From an uncultured Candidatus Saccharibacteria bacterium (GTDB lineage Bacteria; Patescibacteriota; Minisyncoccia; Phycocordibacterales; PALSA-1337), in the NCBI GenBank assembly GCA_964394505.1, contig CAYMXR010000001.1, positions 9,878 to 73,877 on the forward strand: DNA of 64,000 bases, written 5' to 3'. The translations under genes were made by a program, and so were the position numbers. Position 1 is the stretch's first letter. The number at the start of each line of letters is the position of its first letter. A model generated the notes under the pieces. It was not told the DNA's origin and ran no database searches. It saw only the letters and a list, made by a program, of their open reading frames with translations. This document shows positions 2,746 through 62,532 of this stretch, one piece after another.

Positions 2746-4494
2746 CTAATCTGTAATCACACGCAAAACTTCTTCGATCGTAGTCAAACCTTGAACACAT
2801 TTGAATATACCGTCTTCCAACATGGTCAACATCCCCTCTTTTTTGGCTTGTTCTTCTATTTCACTCGAGGTTGCATTTTTCATGATCAAATTCTTGATTG
2901 ATTGGGTCATAGTCAAAACTTCGTGAATACCGACGCGACTCTTGAAACCATCATCGTCTGGTCCTGGTACAGCTTTCCAAAAAGATATTCTATCCCAATT
3001 ATCAGATGGCTTTATTATCTTCCCAGCCTTAAGCGCAGCTAAAACCCTATCGAGATCAACAATCTTTCCCAATTGAGCAAATTCATCCTTGGTCAATTTG
3101 TATTCTTGTTTGAGATCAGACAACCGACGTACCAATCGTTGGCCGATAACCACATCGAGAGTAGAAACCAAAAGAAATGGCTCAACTTTCATATCCAAAA
3201 GACGAGGAATCGCGCCAGCAGCAGAGTTTGTGTGTAAAGTAGAAAGAACCAAGTGTCCAGTAAGAGCCGCGTTTATAGCTAGTGCCGCTGTTTCATTGTC
3301 TCGAATCTCTCCTACCATGATCACATCTGGGTCTTGTCTAACCAAAGTTCGTATACCTTGAGGAAATGAAAAACCGATCTCTGGTCGAACTTGAGTCTGG
3401 TTTATCCGAGCCATCTGGTATTCGATAGGATCTTCTATTGTCGAAATATTAACATCCGGAGTATTCAAAATATCTAACATTGTATACAAAGTAGTAGTTT
3501 TTCCAGAACCAGTGGGGCCCGTCATGAGAATCATGCCTGTGGTTTTTTTCAGCACTTTATGAATAGCTTCAAGTCCTTCCCCATGAAAATTGAGATACTC
3601 CAAAGTAAAACCAGATATACTTTCGCGCAAAAGACGCATAACTATCTTTTCTCCATAATAAGTAGGCAGTATCGATACACGGAAAGAAACTTTTTCATCA
3701 CTCATGTCCACTTTGAAACGACCATCTTGAGGTAAACGCTTTTCATCGAGTTTCAAATTTGCCAATACCTTGATCCTAGCCGAAACCGATGGACCAGCCT
3801 GTTTTGGAAGCACCATCGCATCATGCAACAAGCCATCGATCCTGTACCTTATCAAAACCTGTTCTTCCATTGGCTCAATGTGAATATCGGATGCGTTTTG
3901 TAAAATTGCATGCTTAATGAGTGTGTCAACTATGCGGACGACTGGTAAATCTTCGGCAATCTTTTTTAGATCGGCCTCTGTGGCGTTTTCTCCACTTTCC
4001 TCAGAGATCATCTTGAGCGATGCTGTCTCTTTTTGGATTAGATCACCGAATTCTGCTTTTAGACTTTTCTGATATTGAACCAAAACTTCCTTGATCGAAT
4101 CCGAATCAGTCAGACGAGGCAAAATCTTTAGATTGACTTTCTTTTTAATAAAATCAATAGCCGAAAGGTCATTTACATCAAGCATTGCAACTTCCAAAGC
4201 AACATCGGTTTTTTTGAAAGCGACGATATTGTGAGCTCTTGCAATAGGTTCTGGAATAAGAGTTAATGTTTCAAAAGGTAGTTTTTTGCCTTTAAGATCA
4301 ACAAAAGGAATACCCAAACCATAGGCTTGCATTCGGCGGAGATTGTCGGCACTGATCTTGCCAGAAGTGACCAAAACATCTCCAAATGGTTTCTTTTTCG
4401 ACTCGCTTTCTTTCTTTGCGTCCAAAAGATCCTCTTTGCTTACCAAGCCAGAGTCGAGAATAAATTTATATAATTGGGTATCTTCAACGAGCAT
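2746..4494 (-). CDS. pilB: Type IV pilus assembly ATPase PilB / GspE family
   Basis: Walker A GPTGSGKTTTLY; Asp box and His box typical of the GspE family. The track start at 4548 is a TTG; the ATG at 4494 (MLVEDTQLYKF) is preferred. Lacks the C-terminal tetracysteine motif. Confidence 0.85.
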   Translation of the reverse strand: MLVEDTQLYKFILDSGLVSKEDLLDAKKESESKKKPFGDVLVTSGKISADNLRRMQAYGLGIPFVDLKGKKLPFETLTLIPEPIARAHNIVAFKKTDVALEVAMLDVNDLSAIDFIKKKVNLKILPRLTDSDSIKEVLVQYQKSLKAEFGDLIQKETASLKMISEESGENATEADLKKIAEDLPVVRIVDTLIKHAILQNASDIHIEPMEEQVLIRYRIDGLLHDAMVLPKQAGPSVSARIKVLANLKLDEKRLPQDGRFKVDMSDEKVSFRVSILPTYYGEKIVMRLLRESISGFTLEYLNFHGEGLEAIHKVLKKTTGMILMTGPTGSGKTTTLYTMLDILNTPDVNISTIEDPIEYQMARINQTQVRPEIGFSFPQGIRTLVRQDPDVIMVGEIRDNETAALAINAALTGHLVLSTLHTNSAAGAIPRLLDMKVEPFLLVSTLDVVIGQRLVRRLSDLKQEYKLTKDEFAQLGKIVDLDRVLAALKAGKIIKPSDNWDRISFWKAVPGPDDDGFKSRVGIHEVLTMTQSIKNLIMKNATSSEIEEQAKKEGMLTMLEDGIFKCVQGLTTIEEVLRVITD

Positions 4495-4548
4495 TAGGTT
4501 AATTATAATGCTATAAAACTTTTTAGTCCAATAGTTGTAAATTACCAA

Positions 4549-4700
4549 TTTTCAATTATCAATAACCCCTACTACGCTCGCTAATCGCGAGCTTCGCAGG
4601 GCAGGCAATGATCAATCAAACACACTGCGATTCACTTGCTTGCCCTTCGTAGCCCCGAGTTTTTATCGAGGGGCGTAGAAGGGAAAATTGATAATTATTT
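4549..4700. repeat. MITE-like palindromic element with imperfect terminal IRs (ATTATCAATAACCCCTACTACG / CGTAGAAGGGAAAATTGATAAT), a central 12/14 hairpin, and a CCCGAGTTTTTATCGAGGGG hairpin
   Basis: Seen directly in the sequence. Confidence 0.5.
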
Positions 4701-4952
4701 AAACCATTTGCACGCATTTGACAGTCATGCTATACTATTGTCGTCAAGTAACTGTTCGCCCACCGGCGAACATGTTTGTTAAAAGGGAGAATGTTTAGTG
4801 CAAAGTGTAAAGTTTTAGTTAATAGTTGATATTTATTATATTAAAATACTATACTGACTCAAAAAACTTAACGCCTTTCCACCACAACTTTGCATTTTAC
4901 ACTTTGCACTTTTCACTTACAATACAATTTAATAAAAACTAAATATAAGAAC

Positions 4953-6113
4953 ATGTTTGATCTAAAAGTAATTAATTCAGTAGTTCAACAATTAGAAGAA
5001 GAACGAGGTATTCCAAAAGAAAAGACACTGGAAGCCATCTCCATGGCCTTTGCTACTGCTTACAAAAAAGAATACGGCAAGAAAGGCCAGATTATTCGCG
5101 CTTCATTTGACCAAAACTCTGGTGCTGTTGAATTTTGGCAGGTAAAGATAGTAGTTGACCATGATCAAGTGATCATGGAAGGCGATGAAGATACTCAAGA
5201 AAATCTCAAAGAGACTGCCGTAGAAGACATCAAGATCCGCTTCAACCCAGAACAACACATTTTCATCGAAGATGCGCGCAAGATAAAGAGAGAAGCGATC
5301 ATCGGTGATGAATTGGTTTTTCCACTTGAGACAAAAGCTGATTTTGGTCGCATCGCCGCTCAGACAGCAAAACAAATCATCATCCAAAAGATTCGCGAGG
5401 CTGAAAAAGTCTCGGTTATGAGCGAATACGGCCAAAAAGAAGGTGAAATTGTCGCTGGAATAGTCGAAAGAGTCGAAAGGGGTGTCATATATATAGATAT
5501 GGGACGAGCGATTGGTGTTATTCCTTACGAAGAACAGATCCCTAGCGAACATTGGAAAACTGGTGACCGTATTCGCGCCTATCTCTTTGCCGTTGAAGAG
5601 ACACCAAAAGGCATTGTCCTCAAGCTTTCTCGCGCTCATCCAAAATTCCTCGCAAAACTATTTGAAACAGAGACCCCAGAGATTGCCTCCGGTGTTGTTG
5701 AGATCAAAAATGTTGCCCGAGAAGCAGGATCGAGATCGAAGATTGCAGTTATTTCTCATGATTCACATATCGATCCGATCGGATCCATGGTTGGTCAAAG
5801 AGGTGTACGCGTAACAACAGTTACCAGCGAGCTTTCTGGTGAAAAGATAGATATTGTCGAATGGAATGAGGATCCTGCTCTATTTATTGAGGAAGCCCTC
5901 TCTCCTGCCGAAGTTGTTTCTCTAGAATTAGATGAAAAAGAACATCGAGCTATAGTTACCGTCACCGAAGATGAGCAATCATTAGCAATCGGTAAGGGTG
6001 GCCAAAATGTCCGCCTTGCCGCCAAACTCACCGGCTGGAAGATTGATATCAAGTCAATTGGAGGAATAGAAGAGTTGGATTTACCTGAGAATGCTGAAGG
6101 TGTAGAGAAATAG
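4953..6113 (+). CDS. nusA: Transcription termination/antitermination factor NusA
   Basis: MFDLKVINSVVQQLEEERGIPKE N-terminus, S1 and KH regions; the track start at 4890 is extended and the ATG at 4953 is used. Confidence 0.9.
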   Translation: MFDLKVINSVVQQLEEERGIPKEKTLEAISMAFATAYKKEYGKKGQIIRASFDQNSGAVEFWQVKIVVDHDQVIMEGDEDTQENLKETAVEDIKIRFNPEQHIFIEDARKIKREAIIGDELVFPLETKADFGRIAAQTAKQIIIQKIREAEKVSVMSEYGQKEGEIVAGIVERVERGVIYIDMGRAIGVIPYEEQIPSEHWKTGDRIRAYLFAVEETPKGIVLKLSRAHPKFLAKLFETETPEIASGVVEIKNVAREAGSRSKIAVISHDSHIDPIGSMVGQRGVRVTTVTSELSGEKIDIVEWNEDPALFIEEALSPAEVVSLELDEKEHRAIVTVTEDEQSLAIGKGGQNVRLAAKLTGWKIDIKSIGGIEELDLPENAEGVEK

Positions 6114-6129
6114 ACTACTAAGGGTTTTT

Positions 6130-6150
6130 ATCTCGAGTTTTTATCGAGAG
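6130..6150. repeat. CTCGAG-family hairpin TCTCGAGTTTTTATCGAGAGA, nested in a larger AGGGTT...AACCCT palindrome
   Basis: Seen directly in the sequence. Confidence 0.5.
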
Positions 6151-6195
6151 AACCCTCAGGGTTGAGCCGTGAAATTAGAATAATTGGAATTAAAC

Positions 6196-6228
6196 AAAAC
6201 CCCTCGACTACTCTCGGGGTTTTGTTTT
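6196..6228. terminator. Rho-independent terminator hairpin (AAAACCCC-loop-GGGGTTTT, T-run on both sides), probably bidirectional for nusA(+) and the minus-strand gene ending at 6208
   Basis: 8-bp GC-rich stem with flanking A/T runs on both strands. Confidence 0.55.
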
Positions 6229-6654
6229 GGAAGACAAGATAATATTTACCTTCTCTTTGAGTTTTTCAAACTCAATAAGATCAACTTTTTTATTGTCTAC
6301 ATTCTGAACATATTCCAATCCAACCTTCAGGTCCTCTCGAAACTGATCAAGGATTGCACCAGTTTGTACTCTAATTATTTCTTTTAATTCATCGAATTTT
6401 TTGTCTACATCGTTAAATCTTTTGTCTATACCACTCAGTCTCTTGTCTATACCACCCAATCTAATATCAATACCATCTAATCTTTGCTCTATAACATTGA
6501 ATCTTTTATCAATAACATCGAATCTTTTACCATTTGTGTCGAACCTTGATCCTGTTTCGTCTCTAAAATCGCGCATCTCTGCCACGAAATCATTGAAATC
6601 TCTTTTGGAGACATAATCTAATAATTGGTGCTTTGGTATTTGGATTGTAGTCAT
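6208..6654 (-). CDS. Hypothetical coiled-coil protein with tandem heptad repeats (IDKRLSG/IDIRLGG/IEQRLDG/IDKRFNV)
   Basis: 148-aa ORF; 21-nt tandem DNA repeats between roughly 6400 and 6560 encode the heptads. Confidence 0.4.
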   Translation of the reverse strand: MTTIQIPKHQLLDYVSKRDFNDFVAEMRDFRDETGSRFDTNGKRFDVIDKRFNVIEQRLDGIDIRLGGIDKRLSGIDKRFNDVDKKFDELKEIIRVQTGAILDQFREDLKVGLEYVQNVDNKKVDLIEFEKLKEKVNIILSSKTKPRE

Positions 6655-6816
6655 TTATTTATTACATTTAGCTATTAACTTATCCATTCTGGCAACAAGT
6701 CGCGTCTCAAAACCTTGCAAAAACTTTATGTGTTCTTGCTTCATTTCTTTTAACTGAATATCAACTTGTTTTCTAAATTCAATTAATTTATCTTCTGTTG
6801 ATTCTGTTTTTGACAT
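6655..6816 (-). CDS. Small hypothetical protein (53 aa, MSKTESTEDKLIEFRKQVDIQLKEMKQEHIKFLQGFETRLVARMDKLIAKCNK)
   Basis: Hand-translated; immediately upstream of and co-directional with the heptad-repeat gene; below the ORF-track size cutoff. Confidence 0.25.
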   Translation of the reverse strand: MSKTESTEDKLIEFRKQVDIQLKEMKQEHIKFLQGFETRLVARMDKLIAKCNK

Positions 6817-7154
6817 TGTTTTAAATATACATTAATTCTCTGCCCTACCTCGTGCATAAGAGGAGAACAAAAAAATTTGTGAGTAAGTGGCAGGTGGAGT
6901 AATTATACCACCCCCAACTTTTTTGCAATCTATTCAAAGAAAAAATTTTGTTGGGTGGTGAGGGAAATAAAATTGGACCAATAATTAAAATGAAATTTAG
7001 TGCTTAGGCAATCATCGGAAGACACAAAAAAGTAGTTGTCAATACTGCAAAAGCCATTATTTCTGCTAGAATCTCGCATATTGTTAGTAGTCGTGGTGAT
7101 CTAGAGGGGTATCGTTAGTTTATTACAAAATATTAATTAACCATTTACAATAAA

Positions 7155-9140
7155 ATGCAATCGTCAGAAATTTTTGCTCTTGTCGCCTCAATTGTAGCCA
7201 TTGTTTACGGCATTTTCTTGATCACATCGATCATGAAGAAGTCCGCAGGCAACGAAAGGATGCAGGAGATCGCCGGAGCTATCCAAGCAGGTGCCAAAGC
7301 TTATCTAAATAGGCAATACCGCACAATTACTATGATAGCTGTTGTTCTGTTCATAGTTTTGTGGATTTTCCTTGGTATTGAGATCGGTATCGGTTTTATT
7401 CTTGGAGCAGTACTCTCTGCTCTAGCTGGATATATCGGCATGAATGTCTCAGTTAGAACAAATGTTCGTACAGCCGAAGCTGCTAGACATGGACTAGGAG
7501 CAGCCCTCTCTCTCGCCTTCAAAGGCGGAGCCGTTACCGGCCTTCTAGTAGTTGGCCTTGCACTTCTTGGTGTTACCGTTTTTTATTCTGTAACTGGAAG
7601 CGTCGAGTCCCTCATTGGCCTTGCTTTTGGTTCAAGCCTTATCTCTGTTTTTGCTCGTCTCGGTGGAGGTATATTCACAAAGGCTGCCGATGTTGGTACT
7701 GACCTAGTAGGCAAAGTCGAAGCTGGTATCCCAGAAGACGATCCAAGAAATCCAGGCGTTATCGCTGACAATGTCGGAGACAATGTTGGTGATTGTGCAG
7801 GTATGGCCGCCGATCTATTTGAGACTTACGCTGTTACAACCATTGCCGCTATGATGCTCGGTGCTGTGCTATTCGAAGGATTCGAAGGTGCTATCTTATA
7901 CCCTCTTGCTTTGGGCGCAATAGCAATATTTGCTTCAATCATAGGTACATGGTTTGTAAAACTAGGTAAATCCCAAAACATCATGGGTGCCATGTACAAA
8001 GGTCTCATTGTTGCTGGGGTACTTGCTGGTATTGCATTCTACCCAGTTACAAATGTGATGATGAAAACCAATGGTACATATAGTGTTCTAGATCTATTTG
8101 CCACAACCCTCATCGGTCTTATTGTCACCGCCCTTCTAGTAGTTATTACCGAGTACTACACATCGACCAAGTACAAACCCGTCCAATCAATCGCCGAAGC
8201 TTCAAATTCTGGACATGGTACAAACATTATCCAGGGTCTTGCTATCTCAATGAAAGCAACCGCATGGCCTCTCATTACTATCGTCGCCGGAATTCTAGCC
8301 GCTTACCATTTCGCTGGACTCTACGGTATCGCTATCGCTGCTATGAGTATGCTTTCTATGGCAGGAATCATCGTAGCAATTGATGCTTATGGACCAATTA
8401 CCGATAACGCTGGCGGTATTGCCGAGATGTCCAATCTTCCAAAAGAAGTTCGCGATGTCACCGATCCTCTAGATGCTGTCGGTAACACAACCAAAGCCGT
8501 AACAAAAGGCTACGCTATTGGTTCTGCCGGACTCGCCGCTTTGGTGCTCTTTGCATCATATACAGAAGAGATCGGTCAGACTGTTATATTTAGCCTGAGT
8601 GATCCAAAAGTTATCGTCGGTCTATTCATCGGAGGGCTTTTACCATATTACTTCGCTGCTTTGTGCATGGAAGCTGTAGGCAAAGCCGCAGGCAAAGTAG
8701 TAGACGAAGTTCGTCGCCAATTCCGCGAAATCAAGGGAATTATGCAAGGTACAGCAAAACCAGACTATGCTCGCTGTGTTGATATCGTGACAAGTGGTGC
8801 AATAAAAGAGATGGTTGCTCCAGCACTCATCCCTGTTCTTGCCCCTATCCTAGTTGGATTTATCCTCGGTCCAATCGCTCTTGGAGGTCTCTTGGTAGGT
8901 TCAATCATCACTGGTCTATTCGTTGCAATCTCTATGACTTCTGGTGGTGGTGCTTGGGATAATGCAAAGAAACATATCGAACAAGGCAATCACGGAGGAA
9001 AAGGCTCTGACGCTCACAAAGCTGCGGTTACAGGAGACACCGTCGGTGATCCATACAAAGATACCGCTGGTCCCGCAATAAACCCAATGATCAAGATCTT
9101 GAACATTGTAGCCCTACTTATTGTTGCGTTCTTGATCTAA
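7155..9140 (+). CDS. hppA: Membrane-bound H+(or Na+)-translocating pyrophosphatase
   Basis: 661 aa, polytopic; motifs [20 protein letters not shown] and [21 protein letters not shown]. Confidence 0.9.
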
Positions 9141-9218
9141 ATCAAAACCTCAATCAATCTGTGGTGTTGCTAGTGAACAAAGTTAGGTCTAGAAATAATC
9201 GTATTATTCAAAAATGTA

Positions 9219-10659: not shown

Positions 10660-11748
10660 ATGACAAATACAAATCAAAAAGAGACTATTAAATCTTATGA
10701 AAAGCTTGTTACAAAAAACTTGGATAAATCTCGTGTCGAGATAAGCGCTTCGATACCTGCAGAAGTTTGGGAAGAAAATCGAGCCAAAGCCCTCAAAAAT
10801 CTAAATGATTCTGTAACCATAGATGGTTTCCGCAAGGGCATGGTTCCAGAAAATATTTTGATAAACAAAGTAGGTCAAAATACCATTAATGAAGAGATGG
10901 CAGAATTGGCACTCTCGAAAGCTTATCTTGATATTTTGATCGATAACAAGATAGATGCTGTCGGTCGACCACAAGTACAAATTACAAAACTTGCTTCCGG
11001 CAATCCCCTCGAATTCAAAGCGACAACAGCTGTAGTTCCTACTGTCAAACTTCCAGATTACAAAAAGATTGCCGAGAAAGAGACAAAAGCGGATGCAAAA
11101 AATGAAATTAAAGTTGAAGAAAAAGATCTTGATGAAGCTATTTTGAAGATTCGTAAATCTCGTGTTTCACACGAAGGTCACGATCACGAAAAGATGACCC
11201 CTGAAGAACATGAAAAGGCAATCCTCGATTCTCTACCAGAATTCAACGATGAGTTTGTACGCGGTCTTGGTGACTTCAAAGATGTAGAGGATTTCAAGAC
11301 AAAGGTTCGTGAAATGATTGGTCAAAACAAGAGAGATGAAGCTCGTGAAAAGTTGCGCATCAAGATTGCCGATGCCCTCCTAGAAGCTACAACCATCGAG
11401 CTTCCCGAGATTATGATAGAAAGTGAACTTGATCGCACTCAAGCACAATTCTCCGGAGATATAGAAAAAATGGGAGTGAAACTTGAAGACTATCTCAAGC
11501 ATGCCAAAAAATCTCTAGAAGAGATCCGCAAAGAATGGACTCCTCATGCTGAGAAAAAAGCAAAATTACAATTGATCCTAAATGCAATAGCTGATACTGA
11601 AAAGATCAAGCCTGATCCAAAAGAGATAGAGGATGAAGTAAAACATATCATCGAGCATTACAAAGATGCTGACCGCGAAAGAGCTTCTACTTATGCGGAG
11701 ACCGTGCTAACCAACGAGAAAGTTTTCAGGATGTTGGAGGGAAAATAA
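10660..11748 (+). CDS. tig: Trigger factor (short form, no obvious PPIase domain)
   Basis: N-terminal ribosome-binding signature DGFRKGMVP; 362 aa. Confidence 0.7.
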   Translation: MTNTNQKETIKSYEKLVTKNLDKSRVEISASIPAEVWEENRAKALKNLNDSVTIDGFRKGMVPENILINKVGQNTINEEMAELALSKAYLDILIDNKIDAVGRPQVQITKLASGNPLEFKATTAVVPTVKLPDYKKIAEKETKADAKNEIKVEEKDLDEAILKIRKSRVSHEGHDHEKMTPEEHEKAILDSLPEFNDEFVRGLGDFKDVEDFKTKVREMIGQNKRDEAREKLRIKIADALLEATTIELPEIMIESELDRTQAQFSGDIEKMGVKLEDYLKHAKKSLEEIRKEWTPHAEKKAKLQLILNAIADTEKIKPDPKEIEDEVKHIIEHYKDADRERASTYAETVLTNEKVFRMLEGK

Positions 11749-11833
11749 CAAATACTGAAGTTGTTTACCTCGAGCCTCATGATCTGAGCTGGTCGAAGGT
11801 TTCGAGAGGCACCTCAGTGAAATCCGCCAGAAA

Positions 11834-12586
11834 TTACATCAACACCTTCGATAGGGCAACGACTGCGGCTGTCTCAGCACGCAAAATCTGTTTACCAAGG
11901 CTGCAAATCGAGACCTTGTTAGCGTGAAACATGTCTAGCTCAGCCGTCGACCACCCTCCTTCTGGCCCTATGAAAACAGCTAGCGACTGTCCGGCGAGGT
12001 CTGACCTCGCCCCACCATCTGTATGAAAAGCAACACCTCTGATAGATTCTGAGCCATCATTTGCGACAGGTTGAGAAAAAACCTGGGCGAGGTCAGACCT
12101 CGCCGAATGTACCACCGGTACATCACCCCTCCCACACTGTTCACTCGCCTCTACTGCAATTTTTTGCAGGCGTTCCATATTCAAATCTTTTTTTTCACTC
12201 CGTTCTGTGATAACTGGAACAATATCGGTAACACCGAGCTCGGTTGCTTTTTCCGTAATCCACTCAAATTTATCTTTTTTTACGACCGCCTGATATAAGA
12301 CAACTTTTCGCGTTGGCATAAATCGGCTAGGTCGGACCTCGCAGACTGCTAAATGCAATTGGCTCCCTCCGCGAGGTTTTTTACCCCGAGCGAAGTCGAG
12401 GGGAACCTCAAGGAGAACACATTCAAAATCATTACCAGACCCATCGAAAACTACAATCTTGTCGCCAGAACCCAAACGGAAAACTCGACTGATCTGATTT
12501 ACAAGTTCAGGCGAATCGATAACCAACTCTTTTTTTGAGCCAATTTTTTCTGTGATGTAAAATCGATGAAGTCTCATTTTGATCAC
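11834..12586 (-). CDS. rsmE: 16S rRNA (uracil1498-N3)-methyltransferase RsmE, carrying three in-frame palindromic-repeat insertions
   Basis: MRLHRFYI...VVFDGSG...IGPEGGWS...RAETAA motifs. The gene is GC-rich relative to its neighbours. Confidence 0.75.
   Translation of the reverse strand: MIKMRLHRFYITEKIGSKKELVIDSPELVNQISRVFRLGSGDKIVVFDGSGNDFECVLLEVPLDFARGKKPRGGSQLHLAVCEVRPSRFMPTRKVVLYQAVVKKDKFEWITEKATELGVTDIVPVITERSEKKDLNMERLQKIAVEASEQCGRGDVPVVHSARSDLAQVFSQPVANDGSESIRGVAFHTDGGARSDLAGQSLAVFIGPEGGWSTAELDMFHANKVSICSLGKQILRAETAAVVALSKVLM
11993..12011. repeat. Palindromic repeat GGCGAGGTC-T-GACCTCGCC (copy A, in-frame in rsmE, encodes ARSDLA)
   Basis: Perfect 9+1+9 palindrome. Confidence 0.8.
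12086..12104. repeat. Palindromic repeat GGCGAGGTC-A-GACCTCGCC (copy B, in-frame in rsmE)
   Basis: Perfect 9+1+9 palindrome. Confidence 0.8.
12328..12346. repeat. Degenerate copy of the palindromic repeat (GCTAGGTCGGACCTCGCAG), copy C, in-frame in rsmE
   Basis: Imperfect palindrome sharing the GGTCGGACCTCGC core. Confidence 0.5.
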
Positions 12587-12631
12587 TGAGGTGCAACCTC
12601 AGTACTGAGGCTTCCCCTCAGTGTTAAGCCA

Positions 12632-13213
12632 CTATTTTTTGGTCATTACTACATGATCGATAATTCCATACTTCTTTGCCTCCTCTGCATCCATGAAGAA
12701 ATCACGGTCAACATCTTTTTCAATACGCGCGACGGTTTGACCAGTATTCTTTGCTAGGAGTTTGTTCAATATACCTCTGGTCTTCAAAATATGTTTAGCG
12801 CTGATCTCAATATCCGAAGCTTGTCCTTCTGCCCCACCCAAAGGTTGGTGAATCATCACCTCAGAATTTGGTAAAGCTGTTCTCTTGCCTTTTGTTCCCG
12901 ATGATAAGACCAAGGCCGCACCAGAAGCAGCAATTCCGACACAGACTGTCGAAATATCATTTTTTATATAATTCATCGTGTCAATAATAGCCAGAGTTGC
13001 CGTTACTGAGCCTCCTGGAGAATTGATATACAATGAAATTTCTTTCTTTGGGTCTTCTGATTGCAAAAACAGTAATTGGGCGATAATGAGGTTGGCAATA
13101 TGATCATCTATCACACCACCTAGAAATATGACATTTTCTTTGAGTAGGCGTGAGTAAATATCGTAGGCGCGCTCACCAAAACTTGATTTCTCTATAACGG
13201 TTGGTATTAACAT
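12632..13213 (-). CDS. clpP: ATP-dependent Clp protease proteolytic subunit
   Basis: 193 aa; catalytic-triad context ([11 protein letters not shown]...MIHQP...D); strong family resemblance. Confidence 0.9.
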
Positions 13214-15025: not shown

Positions 15026-15036
15026 CTTCTAAATAG

Positions 15037-15110
15037 TGCAAAGTGAAAAGTGAAAAATGCAAAGTTCTGTCGCGTCTGCGATTTCACTTTGCATTTTGCA
15101 CTACTAAATT
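15037..15110. repeat. GTGCAAAGTGAAAAGTGAAAAATGCAAAG ... TTTCACTTTGCATTTTGCAC imperfect palindrome (member of the GTGCAAAGTGAAAA motif family), between rny and hup
   Basis: Seen directly; related copies at 2649-2667, 4798-4816 and 4880-4912. Confidence 0.5.
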
Positions 15111-15276
15111 TGCATTAATATATGTCACATGTCAATCCACAACCATGGTTGCTTATAATACGGCTTACTATATAATTATAGCCATGGATCGAGACTCGTC
15201 TGCTCTCCCCTCGGAGATAGCGGTGCGGGGCGAGACCAGTTCGAGATTAATAATTATTAGAATAATAAAAACAACT

Positions 15277-19451: not shown

Positions 19452-19525
19452 TGGTGCGGGATGGGAGAATCGGACTCCCGACCACAGTTTGGAAAACTGT
19501 TATTATACCATTTAACTAATCCCGC
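19452..19525 (-). tRNA. tRNA-Gly (anticodon UCC); CCA is encoded
   Basis: Hand-folded cloverleaf: GCGGGAT acceptor stem, anticodon loop TTTCCAA. The T-loop reads TCCGATT (C at position 55), which is atypical. Confidence 0.6.
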
Positions 19526-19559
19526 TATTTCTAGTTAACAGCAAAATCAATACTAGCAA

Positions 19560-19994
19560 TTATTTGTTATTTTCGCCAGAATTATCGACAACTGCTTCTT
19601 TTATCTCCACGATATTCTTTTCTATCTCTTTTATTGTATTTTGAATTTCTTTAAGCTCAATTCCCTCTTCTTTGATCTCCTTTTCAGTCTTTTCTGCCAA
19701 TTTCTTTTCGCCACTCATACCACTGATGAGCACCGTATCGCCAATGAAATAAGAGACAAAGAGTCCTGAAGCTAGAAGTATCACGGTCACAATAACCAAG
19801 TTGTTTGGCTCATAAAATAACCAGCCCAACCAACCTCCTTGAGCTTGAAGCATGTCTGCTGTATGCCAGATCCCTCTCCAAAAAAGCACAATCGCTATGC
19901 CGCCAATAAATGTATACAAAATAGGGTGATGACTAAGACGCCCCCTCACTTTATCTTCAAATTTATCAAAATAATTAATTATTTTCTTAAACAT
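19560..19994 (-). CDS. Hypothetical membrane protein with a coiled-coil C-terminus
   Basis: Two TM helices. Confidence 0.45.
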   Translation of the reverse strand: MFKKIINYFDKFEDKVRGRLSHHPILYTFIGGIAIVLFWRGIWHTADMLQAQGGWLGWLFYEPNNLVIVTVILLASGLFVSYFIGDTVLISGMSGEKKLAEKTEKEIKEEGIELKEIQNTIKEIEKNIVEIKEAVVDNSGENNK

Positions 19995-20087
19995 AATTCA
20001 AATTGTAACATACTCATGCGTAAATTTCCCAAAGAAAAAGAGGTGCCTTATTTTTAAGATTTAAGATTTGAGATTTTATATTTAATG

Positions 20088-20160
20088 TCGGAGCGCCGGG
20101 ATTCGAACCCGGAGTCGCCTCTTCCCAAAAGAGGAATGTTAGCCGTTACACCACGCTCCG
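20088..20160 (-). tRNA. tRNA-Pro (anticodon UGG); CCA not encoded
   Basis: Cloverleaf folded by hand: anticodon loop TTTGGGA with G37, T-loop TTCGAAT, perfect D-stem. Confidence 0.8.
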
Positions 20161-20182
20161 ATAACAGAACTATCCTAGCACA

Positions 20183-20563
20183 TTACAAAATAATATTCTC
20201 TATCATCCTCACTTTTGCTTTTTTTGTCTCAAAATTGAGGTACACGCATATTACATGAAAAGCGAACTCAATTTCAAGTCCTTTATCATTTTCATCAAAA
20301 TAAGTTTGAACCATCTTGCGTATTTGCCTGATTTTCCAATTATCCACATTCTCTTCTGGTTTATGTCCATTGATAACAGTCGGACAATTGGAGACACTTT
20401 TGACTTCAATAAAGTGAATGAGACTGTCTTTGTTGGCGATAATGTCTATTTCACCCCATCTTTTCCTATAGTTTCTAGTTTCAATACAAAAACCATTTTT
20501 AACTAGATATTCACAGGCTATTCTTTCTCCAATTTCCCCTATTTTGCGTGTATTTTTGGTCAT
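20183..20563 (-). CDS. yraN: YraN-family (UPF0102) endonuclease
   Basis: GEIGERIACEYLVKNGFCIETRNYR...GEIDIIA...IHFIEVK motif pattern. Confidence 0.75.
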   Translation of the reverse strand: MTKNTRKIGEIGERIACEYLVKNGFCIETRNYRKRWGEIDIIANKDSLIHFIEVKSVSNCPTVINGHKPEENVDNWKIRQIRKMVQTYFDENDKGLEIEFAFHVICVYLNFETKKAKVRMIENIIL

Positions 20564-20596
20564 TTTTAACGCATTTAAGCCATTAAAGTCGTCTTT

Positions 20597-20626
20597 TATT
20601 CACATAATCCCCAAGCTTATCCACAG
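20597..20626. promoter_or_regulatory. Two DnaA-box 9-mers (TTATTCACA at 8/9, TTATCCACA at 9/9), 12 bp apart, 34-63 bp upstream of yraN
   Basis: Direct match to the TTATCCACA consensus. Confidence 0.35.
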
Positions 20627-20746
20627 TTGTCCATTACGAAATACTATTTTGAGCCATATATTACAGACAACAACTTTTCTTGTAGATAATAGAAAAATTC
20701 AAAATTGCAGAGCCACAATAGGCTTTCTTTGAGACTAACTTCCCTG

Positions 20747-20817
20747 TGCGGGTAGGGAGAATCGAACTCCCACCTCGTCCTTGGCAAGGACGCGTCCTAC
20801 CACTAAACGATACCCGC
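20747..20817 (-). tRNA. tRNA-Gly (anticodon GCC); CCA not encoded
   Basis: Anticodon loop TTGCCAA, T-loop TTCGATT, 7-bp acceptor stem GCGGGTA/TACCCGC. Confidence 0.8.
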
Positions 20818-21063
20818 CTACGCAAATTTAGACCTCCGGTCTAAATTCGCTACGGCGGGCAAGCCCGCTTTGTCCGTAGTAATCTAGAACGAATTAATTG
20901 CCTAAATAAGCAACAAAAGAAGTATACCGTAATAATATTTTTTTACAAATCTAAATGTGCTGGCACTACTACACTCCTCGCAAGCTCAGCGCTACGAAGT
21001 GCTGGCACTACGAAGCCCTACATCGCGCACCAGCACACTGGTGCGCGATTGCGGGCGAAGTAG

Positions 21064-21135
21064 TGCCCTCGGAGGGACTCGAACCCCCAACAGCGGTTCC
21101 GAAGACCGATGTGATATCCATTTCACCACGAGGGC
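21064..21135 (-). tRNA. tRNA-Arg (anticodon UCG); CCA not encoded
   Basis: Acceptor GCCCTCG/CGAGGGC, perfect D-stem, anticodon loop CTTCGGA, T-loop TTCGAGT; one mismatch at the base of the anticodon stem. Confidence 0.6.
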
Positions 21136-27045: not shown

Positions 27046-27669
27046 TCAGCTTCTGGAACAGTAATGAACCGAGGAATCGGCCTGTGGGTCATGAGTCCCA
27101 AATGTGAATGGCGTCGTCAATTCATCATAACCCTTGATCGACGGAAACAATCTCTGCATCTGTTCGTGCCGTCTCCGCCATTTGGCAAAGAGGTCACGAG
27201 CCTTTATGGGATCCTTCTCCTGAATAGCGCAGATTGCCTCTAATTCAGAAACCAAGGCTTTCTCGATCGCCTTCTCAACGTCGTCGAGCGCGCTCCAGTC
27301 TTCAAACTGTCTTCCGGTGACGCTTTCGACATACTGGATCGCTTCGATGAAGTCGACCGCGTTCTGCCAGTACTCAGAGCGACCGGCGAACGGCCAGGAA
27401 AACAGCCAAGTAATGACGGCACAGACCACCACAAACAGACCAACTATGACCCATGCCATTACAGACCATGATGTATTCACAAAAACTCCAAAGGCGGCAA
27501 AGGAGTAGCCGAATACGACGAAGGAAATCACCGCCACCAAAGCCACAAGCCACCGAGCTCCGCTCTTCGCTCTTTCATGAAGAAATACGGCTTCAACCAA
27601 ATCGTCGATCTCTGTCGGGTTCCAATCCGCATTAGAACCATAGGCAATTATTCTTCTTGCAAGTTTCAT
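27046..27669 (-). CDS. Hypothetical membrane protein encoded in a GC-rich (~50%) islet
   Basis: 207-aa ORF with 3-4 TM helices; the many overlapping ORFs on both strands reflect the high GC, so strand choice is uncertain. Confidence 0.35.
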   Translation of the reverse strand: MKLARRIIAYGSNADWNPTEIDDLVEAVFLHERAKSGARWLVALVAVISFVVFGYSFAAFGVFVNTSWSVMAWVIVGLFVVVCAVITWLFSWPFAGRSEYWQNAVDFIEAIQYVESVTGRQFEDWSALDDVEKAIEKALVSELEAICAIQEKDPIKARDLFAKWRRRHEQMQRLFPSIKGYDELTTPFTFGTHDPQADSSVHYCSRS

Positions 27670-28013: not shown

Positions 28014-28044
28014 CGCTTCCGGCGAGGTCGGACCTCGCCGGAAA
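28014..28044. repeat. Extended perfect palindrome TTCCGGCGAGGTC-G-GACCTCGCCGGAA (copy D), 10 nt upstream of the pnp ATG
   Basis: 13+1+13 palindrome. Confidence 0.8.
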
Positions 28045-62356: not shown

Positions 62357-62400
62357 AAGAGGGAAGTTCTGCGAATGCTATATTTTCCGCGAGGTGTTGT

Positions 62401-62427
62401 GGAGGGCGAGGTCGGACCTCGCCCTCC
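62401..62427. repeat. Extended perfect palindrome GGAGGGCGAGGTC-G-GACCTCGCCCTCC (copy E) in the divergent spacer
   Basis: 13+1+13 palindrome. Confidence 0.8.
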
Positions 62428-62532
62428 AATCGATCTTGACAAGTGAGGTCTATCCGTGCTAGTATCATAAGCGAATCTCAAGGCTGTGTGGTCTTGGGGA
62501 AAAACAACAATTCAGAAATCGGAGAACTTAGA

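Follow-up and report, generated by a model that had tools for sequence, protein, structure and literature searches.

The stretch of DNA analysed here (hereafter the window), 64,000 nt of contig CAYMXR010000001.1 from an uncultured Candidatus Saccharibacteria bacterium, contains an rsmE gene that carries short GC-rich DNA palindromes both in its flanking spacers and within its coding sequence (CDS), where they are translated as part of the protein (Table 1). The predicted product of the open reading frame (ORF) at 11834–12577 is RsmE, of the family of 16S rRNA m3U1498 methyltransferases, as judged from its matches to PF04452 (E = 4e-42, 144 bits, cut-off 23.9), PUA_4 (25.3 bits, cut-off 23.9) and TIGR00046 (133 bits, cut-off 41), from a search of the PDB that returned 12 RsmE chains (best E 6e-20) and from an AlphaFold model with a pLDDT of 83.7 and a pTM of 0.82. 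All of the RsmE orthologs aligned begin with MRLHRFY, which places the true start at the ATG at 12577, three codons downstream of the GTG at 12586 chosen by the ORF lister. The best homologs belong to Patescibacteria (with the names Paceibacterota and Taylorbacteria).

Table 1. Features of the rsmE region and intergenic palindromes elsewhere in the window
Feature	Position	Strand	Remarks
tig (trigger factor)	10660–11748	+	Convergent with rsmE; Trigger_N and Trigger_C domains
Decayed hairpin repeat 3′ of rsmE	11806–11819		GAGG-CA-CCTCAGTG, remnant of a CACTGAGGT-TGC-ACCTCAGTG unit
rsmE CDS	11834–12577	−	247 aa from ATG 12577; PF04452 and TIGR00046 matches
Site B palindrome	11993–12011		GGCGAGGTCTGACCTCGCC; ARSDLA, aa 190–195, loop before the FIGPEGGW strand
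Site A palindrome	12086–12104		GGCGAGGTCAGACCTCGCC; ARSDLA, aa 159–164, helix N-cap after GRGDVPVV
Site C imperfect palindrome (16/17)	12326–12342		GCTAGGTCGGACCTCGC on the + strand; C-E-V-R-P-S, aa 79–84, conserved β-strand
Site C′	12373–12409		Outer stem GAGGTT...AACCTC; nested 24-nt (8-aa) hairpin 12384–12403 in its loop
Spacer doublet, hairpin 1	12585–12603		ACTGAGGT-GCA-ACCTCAGT
Spacer doublet, hairpin 2	12604–12622		ACTGAGG-CTTCC-CCTCAGT
clpP	12632–13213	−	Upstream of rsmE, same strand; PF00574 (9e-80)
Intergenic 27-nt perfect palindrome	28017–28043		TTCCGGCGAGGTCGGACCTCGCCGGAA; 11 nt upstream of the pnp ATG
Intergenic 29-nt perfect palindrome	62400–62428		TGGAGGGCGAGGTCGGACCTCGCCCTCCA; spacer between a divergent PilB-like ATPase gene and the next ORF

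The motif GCGAGGTC-N-GACCTCGC matches the window five times at no more than one mismatch, where 0.09 matches would be expected. Three of the matches lie within rsmE, two of them perfect (11994–12010 and 12087–12103) and one with a single mismatch (12326–12342), and two further perfect matches, at 28022 and 62406, are intergenic and extend to palindromes of 27 and 29 nt. GAGG-N5-CCTC is found six times against 0.46 expected, with two matches each in the rsmE CDS, in the clpP–rsmE spacer and in other intergenic sequence. Four of the nine repeat units of the window fall within a CDS, and the extragenic density is about one copy per 15–30 kb. The repeat holds no stop codon in any frame, except for TGA in one frame if N is T, and can therefore sit inside genes and be translated. 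The site B DNA hairpin has a folding energy of −9.1 kcal/mol (z −4.1), compared with −15.2 kcal/mol (z −5.7) and −16.8 kcal/mol (z −7.9) for the 27- and 29-nt palindromes, and the spacer doublet, which ends 7 nt before the rsmE ATG, folds as RNA at −25.8 kcal/mol (z −3.5). Site C′ is translated as EVPLDFARGKKPR (aa 57–69), a loop with pLDDT below 50, and its fold is weak. At gathering thresholds, Rfam models matched only four tRNAs in the window and nothing at rsmE.

A first-pass annotation of this DNA had described three in-frame palindromes within rsmE. Two of them are indeed perfect, while the third, at site C, is imperfect and is read in a frame differing from that of sites A and B; moreover, perfect copies are also present outside the gene, and the excess over chance that the annotation had anticipated genome-wide is found within the 64 kb of the window. 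It had also reported 10-bp inverted repeats bounding the gene exactly, accompanied by two further hairpins. The repeats, CACCTCAGTG at 11810–11819 and its reverse complement at 12584–12593, are confirmed, and the further hairpins are recovered as the adjacent pair of the spacer doublet. The inverted repeats are, in turn, both derived from the same hairpin unit, CACTGAGGT-TGC-ACCTCAGTG, which is intact in the 5′ spacer and decayed in the 3′ spacer and which in relatives is placed upstream of rsmE, downstream of it or in neither position. Their reading as the ends of a cassette is not supported; an inverted repeat results wherever a palindrome is present twice. All five window copies of CCTCAGT lie on the rsmE flanks, although their total is not above chance (5.09 expected) and only the clustering is of note.

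The concentration of the repeat on rsmE is apparent from a census of 88 rsmE-centred loci (1.36 Mb), in which GAGG-N5-CCTC extended by at least one further complementary pair was counted. Such extended hairpins number 15 in 62.7 kb of rsmE CDS, 10 in the 26 kb lying within 150 nt of rsmE and four in the 1,267 kb of all other sequence, an enrichment of ~76-fold in rsmE and ~120-fold in its immediate flanks; the four outside rsmE comprise the two intergenic copies of the window and two at the 3′ end of nusA in relatives. RsmE is comparatively divergent (62% identity in the relative L087, against 77–93% for its housekeeping neighbours), but tolerance alone is ruled out as the cause of the hot spot by orf289 and orf120, which evolve faster than rsmE and contain no hairpin copies. 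At the nusA 3′ end, GAGG-N5-CCTC hairpins were recorded in L085 (7456–7480), L087 (6184) and L088 (8214), including the form CACTGAGG-TCTCT-CCTCAGTG, and none is present there in the window.

Some other elements of the window are recorded here in their own right. A perfect hairpin, TGTTCGCC-N3/4-GGCGAACA, of which none is expected by chance, occupies 4753–4772 in the divergent spacer between a type II secretion protein E (T2SS-E)/PilB-like ATPase gene and nusA; it is operator-like, and its sequence is shared by the window and, of seven close relatives scanned, by five (L083 18237, L085 8706, L086 8098, L087 7386 and L088 9420). The motif GTGCAAAGTGAA has six copies at no more than one mismatch against 0.5 expected (2648, 4798, 4898 on the − strand, 15036, 15043 and 15083 on the − strand), which seem to lie in spacers upstream of genes, those at 15034–15117, located between the genes for RNase Y and an HU-like protein, forming an inverted repeat. 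A cluster of four − strand tRNA genes (19455–21135) is interspersed with GC-rich inverted repeats at 20813–20859 and 21004–21067, the latter with a 12-bp perfect stem (ATCGCGCACCAG/CTGGTGCGCGAT); these are unrelated in sequence to the rsmE palindromes. The GC-richest ORF of the window (27046–27669, − strand, 50.2% GC), which encodes a membrane-like protein of 207 aa and adjoins the palindrome at 28017, is one of only two ORFs with a Shine–Dalgarno (SD)-like motif, has the sole strong SD (GAGGAGGTGG) and is possibly foreign DNA.

Palindromic sites in RsmE orthologs

The palindromic segments in rsmE had originally been read as three ARSDLA-type insertions absent from canonical RsmE, but alignment with orthologs and with the solved RsmE structure 4j3c shows that zero to one residue is added at each. 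Site A has one codon more than palindrome-free orthologs and aligns without gaps with PRKLEDL of 4j3c, site B is in a loop of variable length that is also gapless against 4j3c, and site C (CEVRPSR) lies in a conserved β-strand with no change in length. At site C, the C-E-V residues encoded with GAG GTC in the window are encoded with GAA GTT in L087, L001 and L088 and with GAG GTT in L086; these relatives thus lack the palindrome, the Glu and Val differences are synonymous, and the Arg/Gly and Pro codons also differ. As relatives encode the same C-E-V with other codons, the site C palindrome rests partly on synonymous differences. The sole true insertion is that of 8 aa at site C′, which was missing from the original list and for which a codon alignment reveals a simple form (CGAGGTTAAACCTCG) in L085 and nested inserts in the window, L081 and L083. 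In the structure model, sites A and B correspond to a helix N-cap and a loop, respectively, and site C′ to a low-confidence loop; three of the four sites are thus a loop or a helix cap, the exception being site C, inside its β-strand.

A hairpin scan of the orthologs revealed perfect palindromes at the same four codon sites, with different sequences. Sites A and B are both occupied by GAGGTTAAACCTC in L083 and by CCGCGAGGCCTCGCCTCGCGG in L087, the latter sequence also being found at site B of L086; site A of L165 carries CGAGGTTAAACCTCG, site B carries CGCGAGGCCTCGCCTCGCG in L081, the 26-nt CGAGGTCAGGGCTAGCCCTGACCTCG in L088 and GCTAGGTCAGACCTAGC in L084, and site C′ of L086 carries TCCTCGAGGCCTCGCCTCGAGGA, GCGAGGCCTCGCCTCGC being another perfect version at the shared sites. 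In L007, L012, L014 and L020, the RsmE of which is only 45–50% identical, AGGTC-N-GACCT is found at site B, and the four copies of L007 share one 11-nt core, each copy having its own pair of mutually complementary flanks. The design in common is a GAGG-N5-CCTC core whose flanks vary in sequence but remain complementary, and the A and B copies are identical within the gene in the window, L083 and L087.

Palindrome-type peptides (RSDL, RPRL, RLNL, RRGL, RSGL and similar) occur in 29 of 120 RsmE homologs, all but one at site A or B. Their Arg codon is AGG in 24 of 24 cases and their Leu codon is CTC in 17 of 24, against a background of 15% for each in these genes, and the two middle residues covary as reverse-complement codon pairs (S/D, L/N, P/R and R/G). 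Since Arg is always AGG and Leu is biased to CTC, the constraint is on the nucleotides and not on the protein.

Occupancy also varies between relatives. The CDS copies are degenerate at site A in L084 and L081 and at sites A and B in L085, and there is none at site A in L001. The hairpin in the clpP–rsmE spacer is double in the window and L081, single in L086, L087, L088, L001, L165 and L164, and absent in L084, L083, L085 and L007; 3′ of rsmE, the CACTGAGGT-TGC-ACCTCAGTG unit is intact in L084 and L083. L164, obtained from a separate run (Logan DRR198493), matches the window without any difference over approximately the first 700 nt aligned, including all four CDS palindromes, but is without exactly one 19-nt unit of the doublet (window 12592–12610, with a 7-nt ambiguity from the CCTCAGT direct repeat). 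As this independent assembly carries identical CDS palindromes, these are not an assembly artefact. The L164 contig ends at the repeat 3′ of rsmE, and comparison with the window shows no substitutions over most of rsmE and 12 in its last ~125 nt (L164 8640–8752, window 11812–11960), a cluster suggestive of a recombination tract that stops at the 3′ hairpin repeat.

The repeat beyond rsmE and a RAYT-like gene

An exact scan of public metagenome contigs for the 19-mer GGCGAGGTCNGACCTCGCC returned 72 contigs. Approximately 45 of these, of high GC content (57–76%), contain a bare 19–21-nt core with no Y1 transposase gene nearby and were discounted, as they are probably due to chance or unrelated. 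In 15 contigs of low GC content (0.34–0.48) the 19-mer is mostly intergenic, often extended (to up to 41 nt) and sometimes doubled 30–40 nt apart. In-frame copies on low-GC contigs encode LARSDLA in a YchF GTPase gene and RARSDLA and ARSDLD at the end of a DoxX-domain ORF; over all of the other lineages, genes with in-frame copies of the repeat are ychF, tyrS, a DoxX-domain gene and an LTD-domain gene. No match to the 19-mer was found in a viral contig collection, and a phage origin of the repeat was rejected on this ground.

A Y1_Tnp gene accompanies the 19-mer in four of the 15 low-GC contigs, which represent three distinct sequences (L159, L124 and L136, the last identical to L147), and in L153 (54% GC), at a distance of ~60 nt or less in the first three and ~700 nt in L153. 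Its product matches PF01797 (E 9e-12), and its best NCBIfam match is REP_Tyr_transpos, the model for transposases of the RAYT type (tyrosine transposases associated with repetitive extragenic palindromes, REPs), with E ~1e-12 and 46–50 bits, below the cut-off of 80; the IS200 model is matched only at E 7e-3. The motifs NHxHLL and YIHxNP are visible in the alignment of the RAYT-like proteins. Y1_Tnp genes are present in none of the 88 rsmE loci (Fisher p = 3e-4 for the comparison with the 19-mer contigs). The RAYT-like family is large and well conserved and comprises 1,527 matches, several of which are named Patescibacteria or Parcubacteria, and one is named RayT by JGI.

In L159, L161, L162 and L163 a genome-specific hairpin is found just before the ATG of this gene, again inside it at about residue 65 and once more just after its stop codon. 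L161 has ATAGAGTCCCGGACTCTAT at all three positions, and L159 has GGCGAGG-TCGGA-CCTCGCC upstream and CCCGAGGTCGGACCTCGGG internally and downstream. In L162 the internal and downstream copies are TGCGGAGG-ACAGG-CCTCCGCA and the upstream copy is TGCGGAGG-CCCGT-CCTCCGCA; in L163 the order is CTAGG-CCCGT-CCTAG, CGAGG-ACGGG-CCTCG and GCTAGG-ACGGG-CCTAGC. The upstream copy is inverted in L162 and L163, the copies in L159 and L161 being perfect palindromes that cannot be oriented. In L162, tyrS also contains in-frame copies, and the LTD-domain gene contains an inverted doublet. The internal site encodes a palindrome-type peptide in ~108 of 120 family members, commonly RGRAS, RGRTS, RGPSS, RGPTS, RVPDS or RDRVS, in which residues 2 and 4 (G/A, G/T, G/S, V/D and D/V) are encoded by the reverse-complement codon pairs GGC/GCC, GGT/ACC, GGA/TCC and GTC/GAC. 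The RAYT-like gene spans 3549–4301 in L159 and 10001–10726 in L163. These findings agree with the RAYT unit as defined previously, with a gene flanked by inverted REPs, REP doublets and the preservation of palindromy by complementary mutations (PMC2817692), but the present repeats have no GTAG or CGTC head and are partly intragenic.

Explanations for the palindromes

The interpretation that we favour, with a probability of roughly 0.6, is that of a patescibacterial repeat of the REP/RAYT type that lives inside coding sequence and has colonised rsmE. Membership of a repeat family, constraint at the nucleotide level, conservation of position with turnover of sequence and the gain or loss of single units are all observed, as is the association with a RAYT-like gene in other genomes; a RAYT-like enzyme is presumably encoded elsewhere in this genome and may drive the turnover of the repeat. 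The suggestion of the first-pass annotation that a selfish palindromic repeat has colonised rsmE is thereby upheld, given its frequency far above chance, the copies outside the gene and the presence/absence polymorphism between near-identical strains. Mechanistically, a RAYT-like tyrosine transposase of the Y1 (HUH) type would act on single-stranded DNA hairpins to make and homogenise the repeats, and units would be duplicated or exchanged preferentially beside existing units, as in models for the growth of bacterial interspersed mosaic elements (BIMEs), so that a cluster would build up at rsmE. Inside the gene, survival would be limited to copies that preserve the reading frame and are accommodated in a loop or helix cap, and occupied sites would be inherited vertically while their units are replaced, converted, duplicated adjacently, lost or nested. 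Where genes are densely packed and spacers short, nothing but precise excision would remove a copy that lies in frame in a gene the cell needs, and such a copy may thus tend to persist.

Several observations weigh against this interpretation. The link to a transposase is one of association in other genomes only: no Y1 or RAYT-like gene or remnant is present in the window or in the 88 rsmE loci, and a lost RAYT remnant beside rsmE was rejected after a search of the window and 12 close loci, translated in six frames, with a hidden Markov model of the RAYT-like alignment had given no match better than E 0.86. Sites A, B and C are almost length-neutral, for which simple transposition is insufficient, so that replacement, conversion or evolution in situ must be invoked, and two of the codons that create the palindrome at site C (Glu and Val) differ synonymously from those of relatives. 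In L165, site A is of the TTAAA type and site B of the CCTCG type, which rules out strict concerted evolution of the two sites. The extreme concentration on rsmE goes beyond what tolerance alone explains. Finally, no copy has the GTAG or CGTC head of REPs, the flanks are not conserved, and the copy number is apparently low, at ~5–8 per 64 kb compared with more than 100 per genome for classic REPs.

The main biological rival is co-opted function: the palindromes would be rsmE-specific cis-elements, acting as mRNA structures that adjust the translation or stability of rsmE in a bacterium without use of SD sites, as a two-way roadblock against antisense transcription from the convergent tig or as a protein site, and the likeness to RAYT systems would reflect co-option. 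We consider this unlikely, albeit better placed than any of the other alternatives. It would account for the enrichment in rsmE and its flanks across the whole family, for the copy-free state of faster-evolving neighbours, for the occupation of the same four codon sites in lineages with RsmE only 45–50% identical, and for a palindrome at site C that arises partly from synonymous differences at unchanged length. In several relatives the hairpin stops 6–7 nt short of the ATG and shows compensatory changes between ACTGAGGT/ACCTCAGT and CCGAGGT/ACCTCGG, hairpins are also found just before the ATG of pnp and of the RAYT-like gene, and the family-wide conservation of the internal hairpin of the latter implies that such hairpins can be under selection. 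On the other hand, the upstream hairpins are absent from four relatives (L084, L083, L085 and L007), one unit differs between near-identical strains, the 3′ copy of the window is decayed, CDS copies are degenerate in several relatives and 91 of 120 RsmE homologs are without palindrome peptides; imperfect copies show no G-U bias, and the same repeat is found in unrelated genes and spacers elsewhere. Sequestration or mimicry of SD or anti-SD sequences by GAGG/CCUC is also unlikely, because an SD-like motif (GGAG, GAGG or AGGA, 3–20 nt upstream of the ATG) is found in only two of the 44 long ORFs of the window. A TATAAT-like box lies 6–10 nt before the ATG in many of these ORFs, and the organism is suggested to have leaderless or very short-leader mRNAs.

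The main mechanistic rival requires no transposase: template switching and correction of quasi-palindromes during replication, together with short-tract gene conversion among neighbouring copies, would generate and maintain the repeats, the link to RAYT being coincidental or secondary. The lack of length gain at sites A, B and C, the fixed core with variable yet complementary flanks in the four L007 copies, the frequent identity of A and B within a gene (window, L083 and L087) and the one-unit indel, whose 7-nt direct-repeat borders (CCTCAGT) are compatible with slippage, can all be accommodated in this way. It leaves unexplained, however, the identical 19-mer beside Y1 transposase genes in unrelated contigs, the constant upstream, internal and downstream arrangement around those genes and the GAGG-N5-CCTC design common to many lineages, and we rank it below co-opted function, as an improbable account. 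Doubtful too, and ranked next, is a domesticated system of the REP/RAYT type, in which the in-gene hairpins, including the rsmE copies, are functional modules and the rsmE hot spot results from selection and not from accident. The copy inside the transposase gene would be retained throughout the family by the covariation of reverse-complement codons; the modules at rsmE could serve as sites for RAYT or other proteins, or as mRNA structures coupling rsmE to clpP expression under leaderless, SD-less translation.

The transfer of rsmE as a GC-rich cassette with terminal inverted repeats, inserted between tig and clpP, as originally proposed, is very improbable. That proposal rested in part on a GC content of ~50% against ~38%; the content is indeed elevated and ranks second among 44 ORFs, but amounts to 46.9–47.1% against 40.0% for the window, with a value at third codon positions (GC3) of 0.42, near the genomic GC content, and an excess of 4–7 points that is found only in palindrome-bearing relatives. 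The 10-bp repeats at both ends of the gene, likewise in its favour, are copies of the hairpin repeat that vary independently of the presence of rsmE, and the variable rsmE–tig spacer has to be set against gene order, which is conserved in all eight clade relatives fetched for synteny (L081, L083–L088 and L007). Indeed, rsmE sits between clpP and tig in each of them. In L081 and L083–L088, the RsmE of which is 59–78% identical to that of the window, clpP and rsmE on the same strand face a convergent tig, two small ORFs and an H+-PPase gene; on contigs that are long enough, RNase Y follows on the far side of clpP and nusA on that of the PPase gene. L007 (RsmE 49% and RNase Y 86% identical) keeps the order rny–clpP–rsmE–tig. 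In L084 the clpP stop codon directly adjoins the start of rsmE and no hairpin intervenes, and L081 alone has a 6-kb insertion separating rsmE and tig. Since gene order is conserved, GC3 is near genomic and the GC excess is linked to the palindromes, rsmE is a native gene at a conserved place and horizontal transfer of a cassette is rejected. The gene had moreover been placed on the strand opposite to tig and clpP, seen as canonical neighbours; it shares its strand with clpP and converges with tig, in an arrangement that is not that of a canonical operon. The L081 insertion (2904–9148) encodes a TrmB-like regulator and also contains several ORFs without annotation, of which one has the hairpin AATCCTCGCCTCAGAAGAGGCGAGGATT at 5629, and the rsmE–tig spacer is also enlarged, with an extra small ORF, in L086–L088 and L165.

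Least credible of all is the notion that the ARSDLA-like peptides are conserved native protein motifs with palindromy as a by-product, for although many homologs show R-x-x-L at each of the two sites and 4j3c carries PRKLEDL at site A, it is contradicted by codon usage (Arg as AGG in 24 of 24 and a strong Leu codon bias), by the covariation of the middle residues as reverse-complement codons and by the occurrence of the same DNA in non-coding spacers.

REP/RAYT systems have so far been known mainly as extragenic repeats of Proteobacteria; published RAYT surveys do not cover Patescibacteria, and in the library searched we found no paper that connects this lineage with palindromic repeats or RAYT. 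If the interpretation of a colonising REP/RAYT-type repeat is true, a REP-type replicator is maintained in very small genomes with densely packed genes by residing in frame within genes, including in a transposase gene and in a gene for ribosome maturation. This would represent a concrete case of selfish DNA reshaping protein loops without a change in length, and would explain some odd GC-rich codon islands in genes of Patescibacteria (candidate phyla radiation, CPR). Repeat copies may also contribute to contig breaks, as in L164. Since covariation at the protein level reads out DNA pairing, the family offers a natural data set for the co-evolution of Y1 enzymes and DNA hairpins.

Comparison with known systems

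The RsmE of the window shares with canonical RsmE (PDB 4e8b, 1vhk and 4j3c) a PUA-like N-terminal domain and a SPOUT domain, retains all of the conserved motifs (EQxGR, IGPEGG[FW]S and LRxETA) and is of similar total length; the gene differs by its four DNA-palindromic codon segments, and the loop at aa 57–69 holds the 8-aa nested-hairpin insertion.

Rickettsia palindromic elements (RPEs) are repeats of ~100–150 bp that add tens of residues to proteins, and are not known to be associated with a transposase. In both cases selfish palindromic repeats lie in frame in the protein genes of a reduced genome and are translated as additional or modified surface segments without destroying the protein. 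The likeness to RPEs invading ORFs suggested by the first-pass annotation holds in this respect, for a translated in-frame repeat, but does not extend to the size of the unit or the gain in length: the rsmE units are only 13–29 nt long and mostly replace residues, with 0–1 aa added at sites A, B and C and 8 aa at site C′. The bacterial lineages are also unrelated.

With the IS200/IS605 elements (Y1 transposase TnpA) the system shares the Y1 HUH enzyme family, whose members recognise hairpins in single-stranded DNA, and hairpins beside the transposase gene. The patescibacterial gene is nearer to RAYT (E 1e-13 versus 7e-3), has no accompanying tnpB gene and looks conserved, unlike a multi-copy insertion sequence, and the hairpins are dispersed on their own.

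The closest comparison is with the REP/REPIN (REP doublets forming hairpins) and RAYT system of Proteobacteria, or 'REPtron'. Here the repeats are found in Patescibacteria and have the core GAGG-N5-CCTC, the score of the Y1 protein is under the curated cut-off for RAYT and the window contains no RAYT gene; many copies, among them a conserved one within the transposase gene, are located in genes and translated. Nevertheless, both systems consist of short GC-rich hairpin repeats, with units of 19–29 nt in this case, and the hairpins of the window are stable and over-represented (5 versus 0.09 expected; DNA hairpin z −4 to −8). Both have genome-specific variants, palindromy that is kept by complementary changes and copies arranged in doublets; a single Y1/HUH gene closely flanked by its cognate repeats is seen in contigs other than the window, with the upstream copy inverted in L162 and L163 and perfect palindromes without orientation in L159 and L161.

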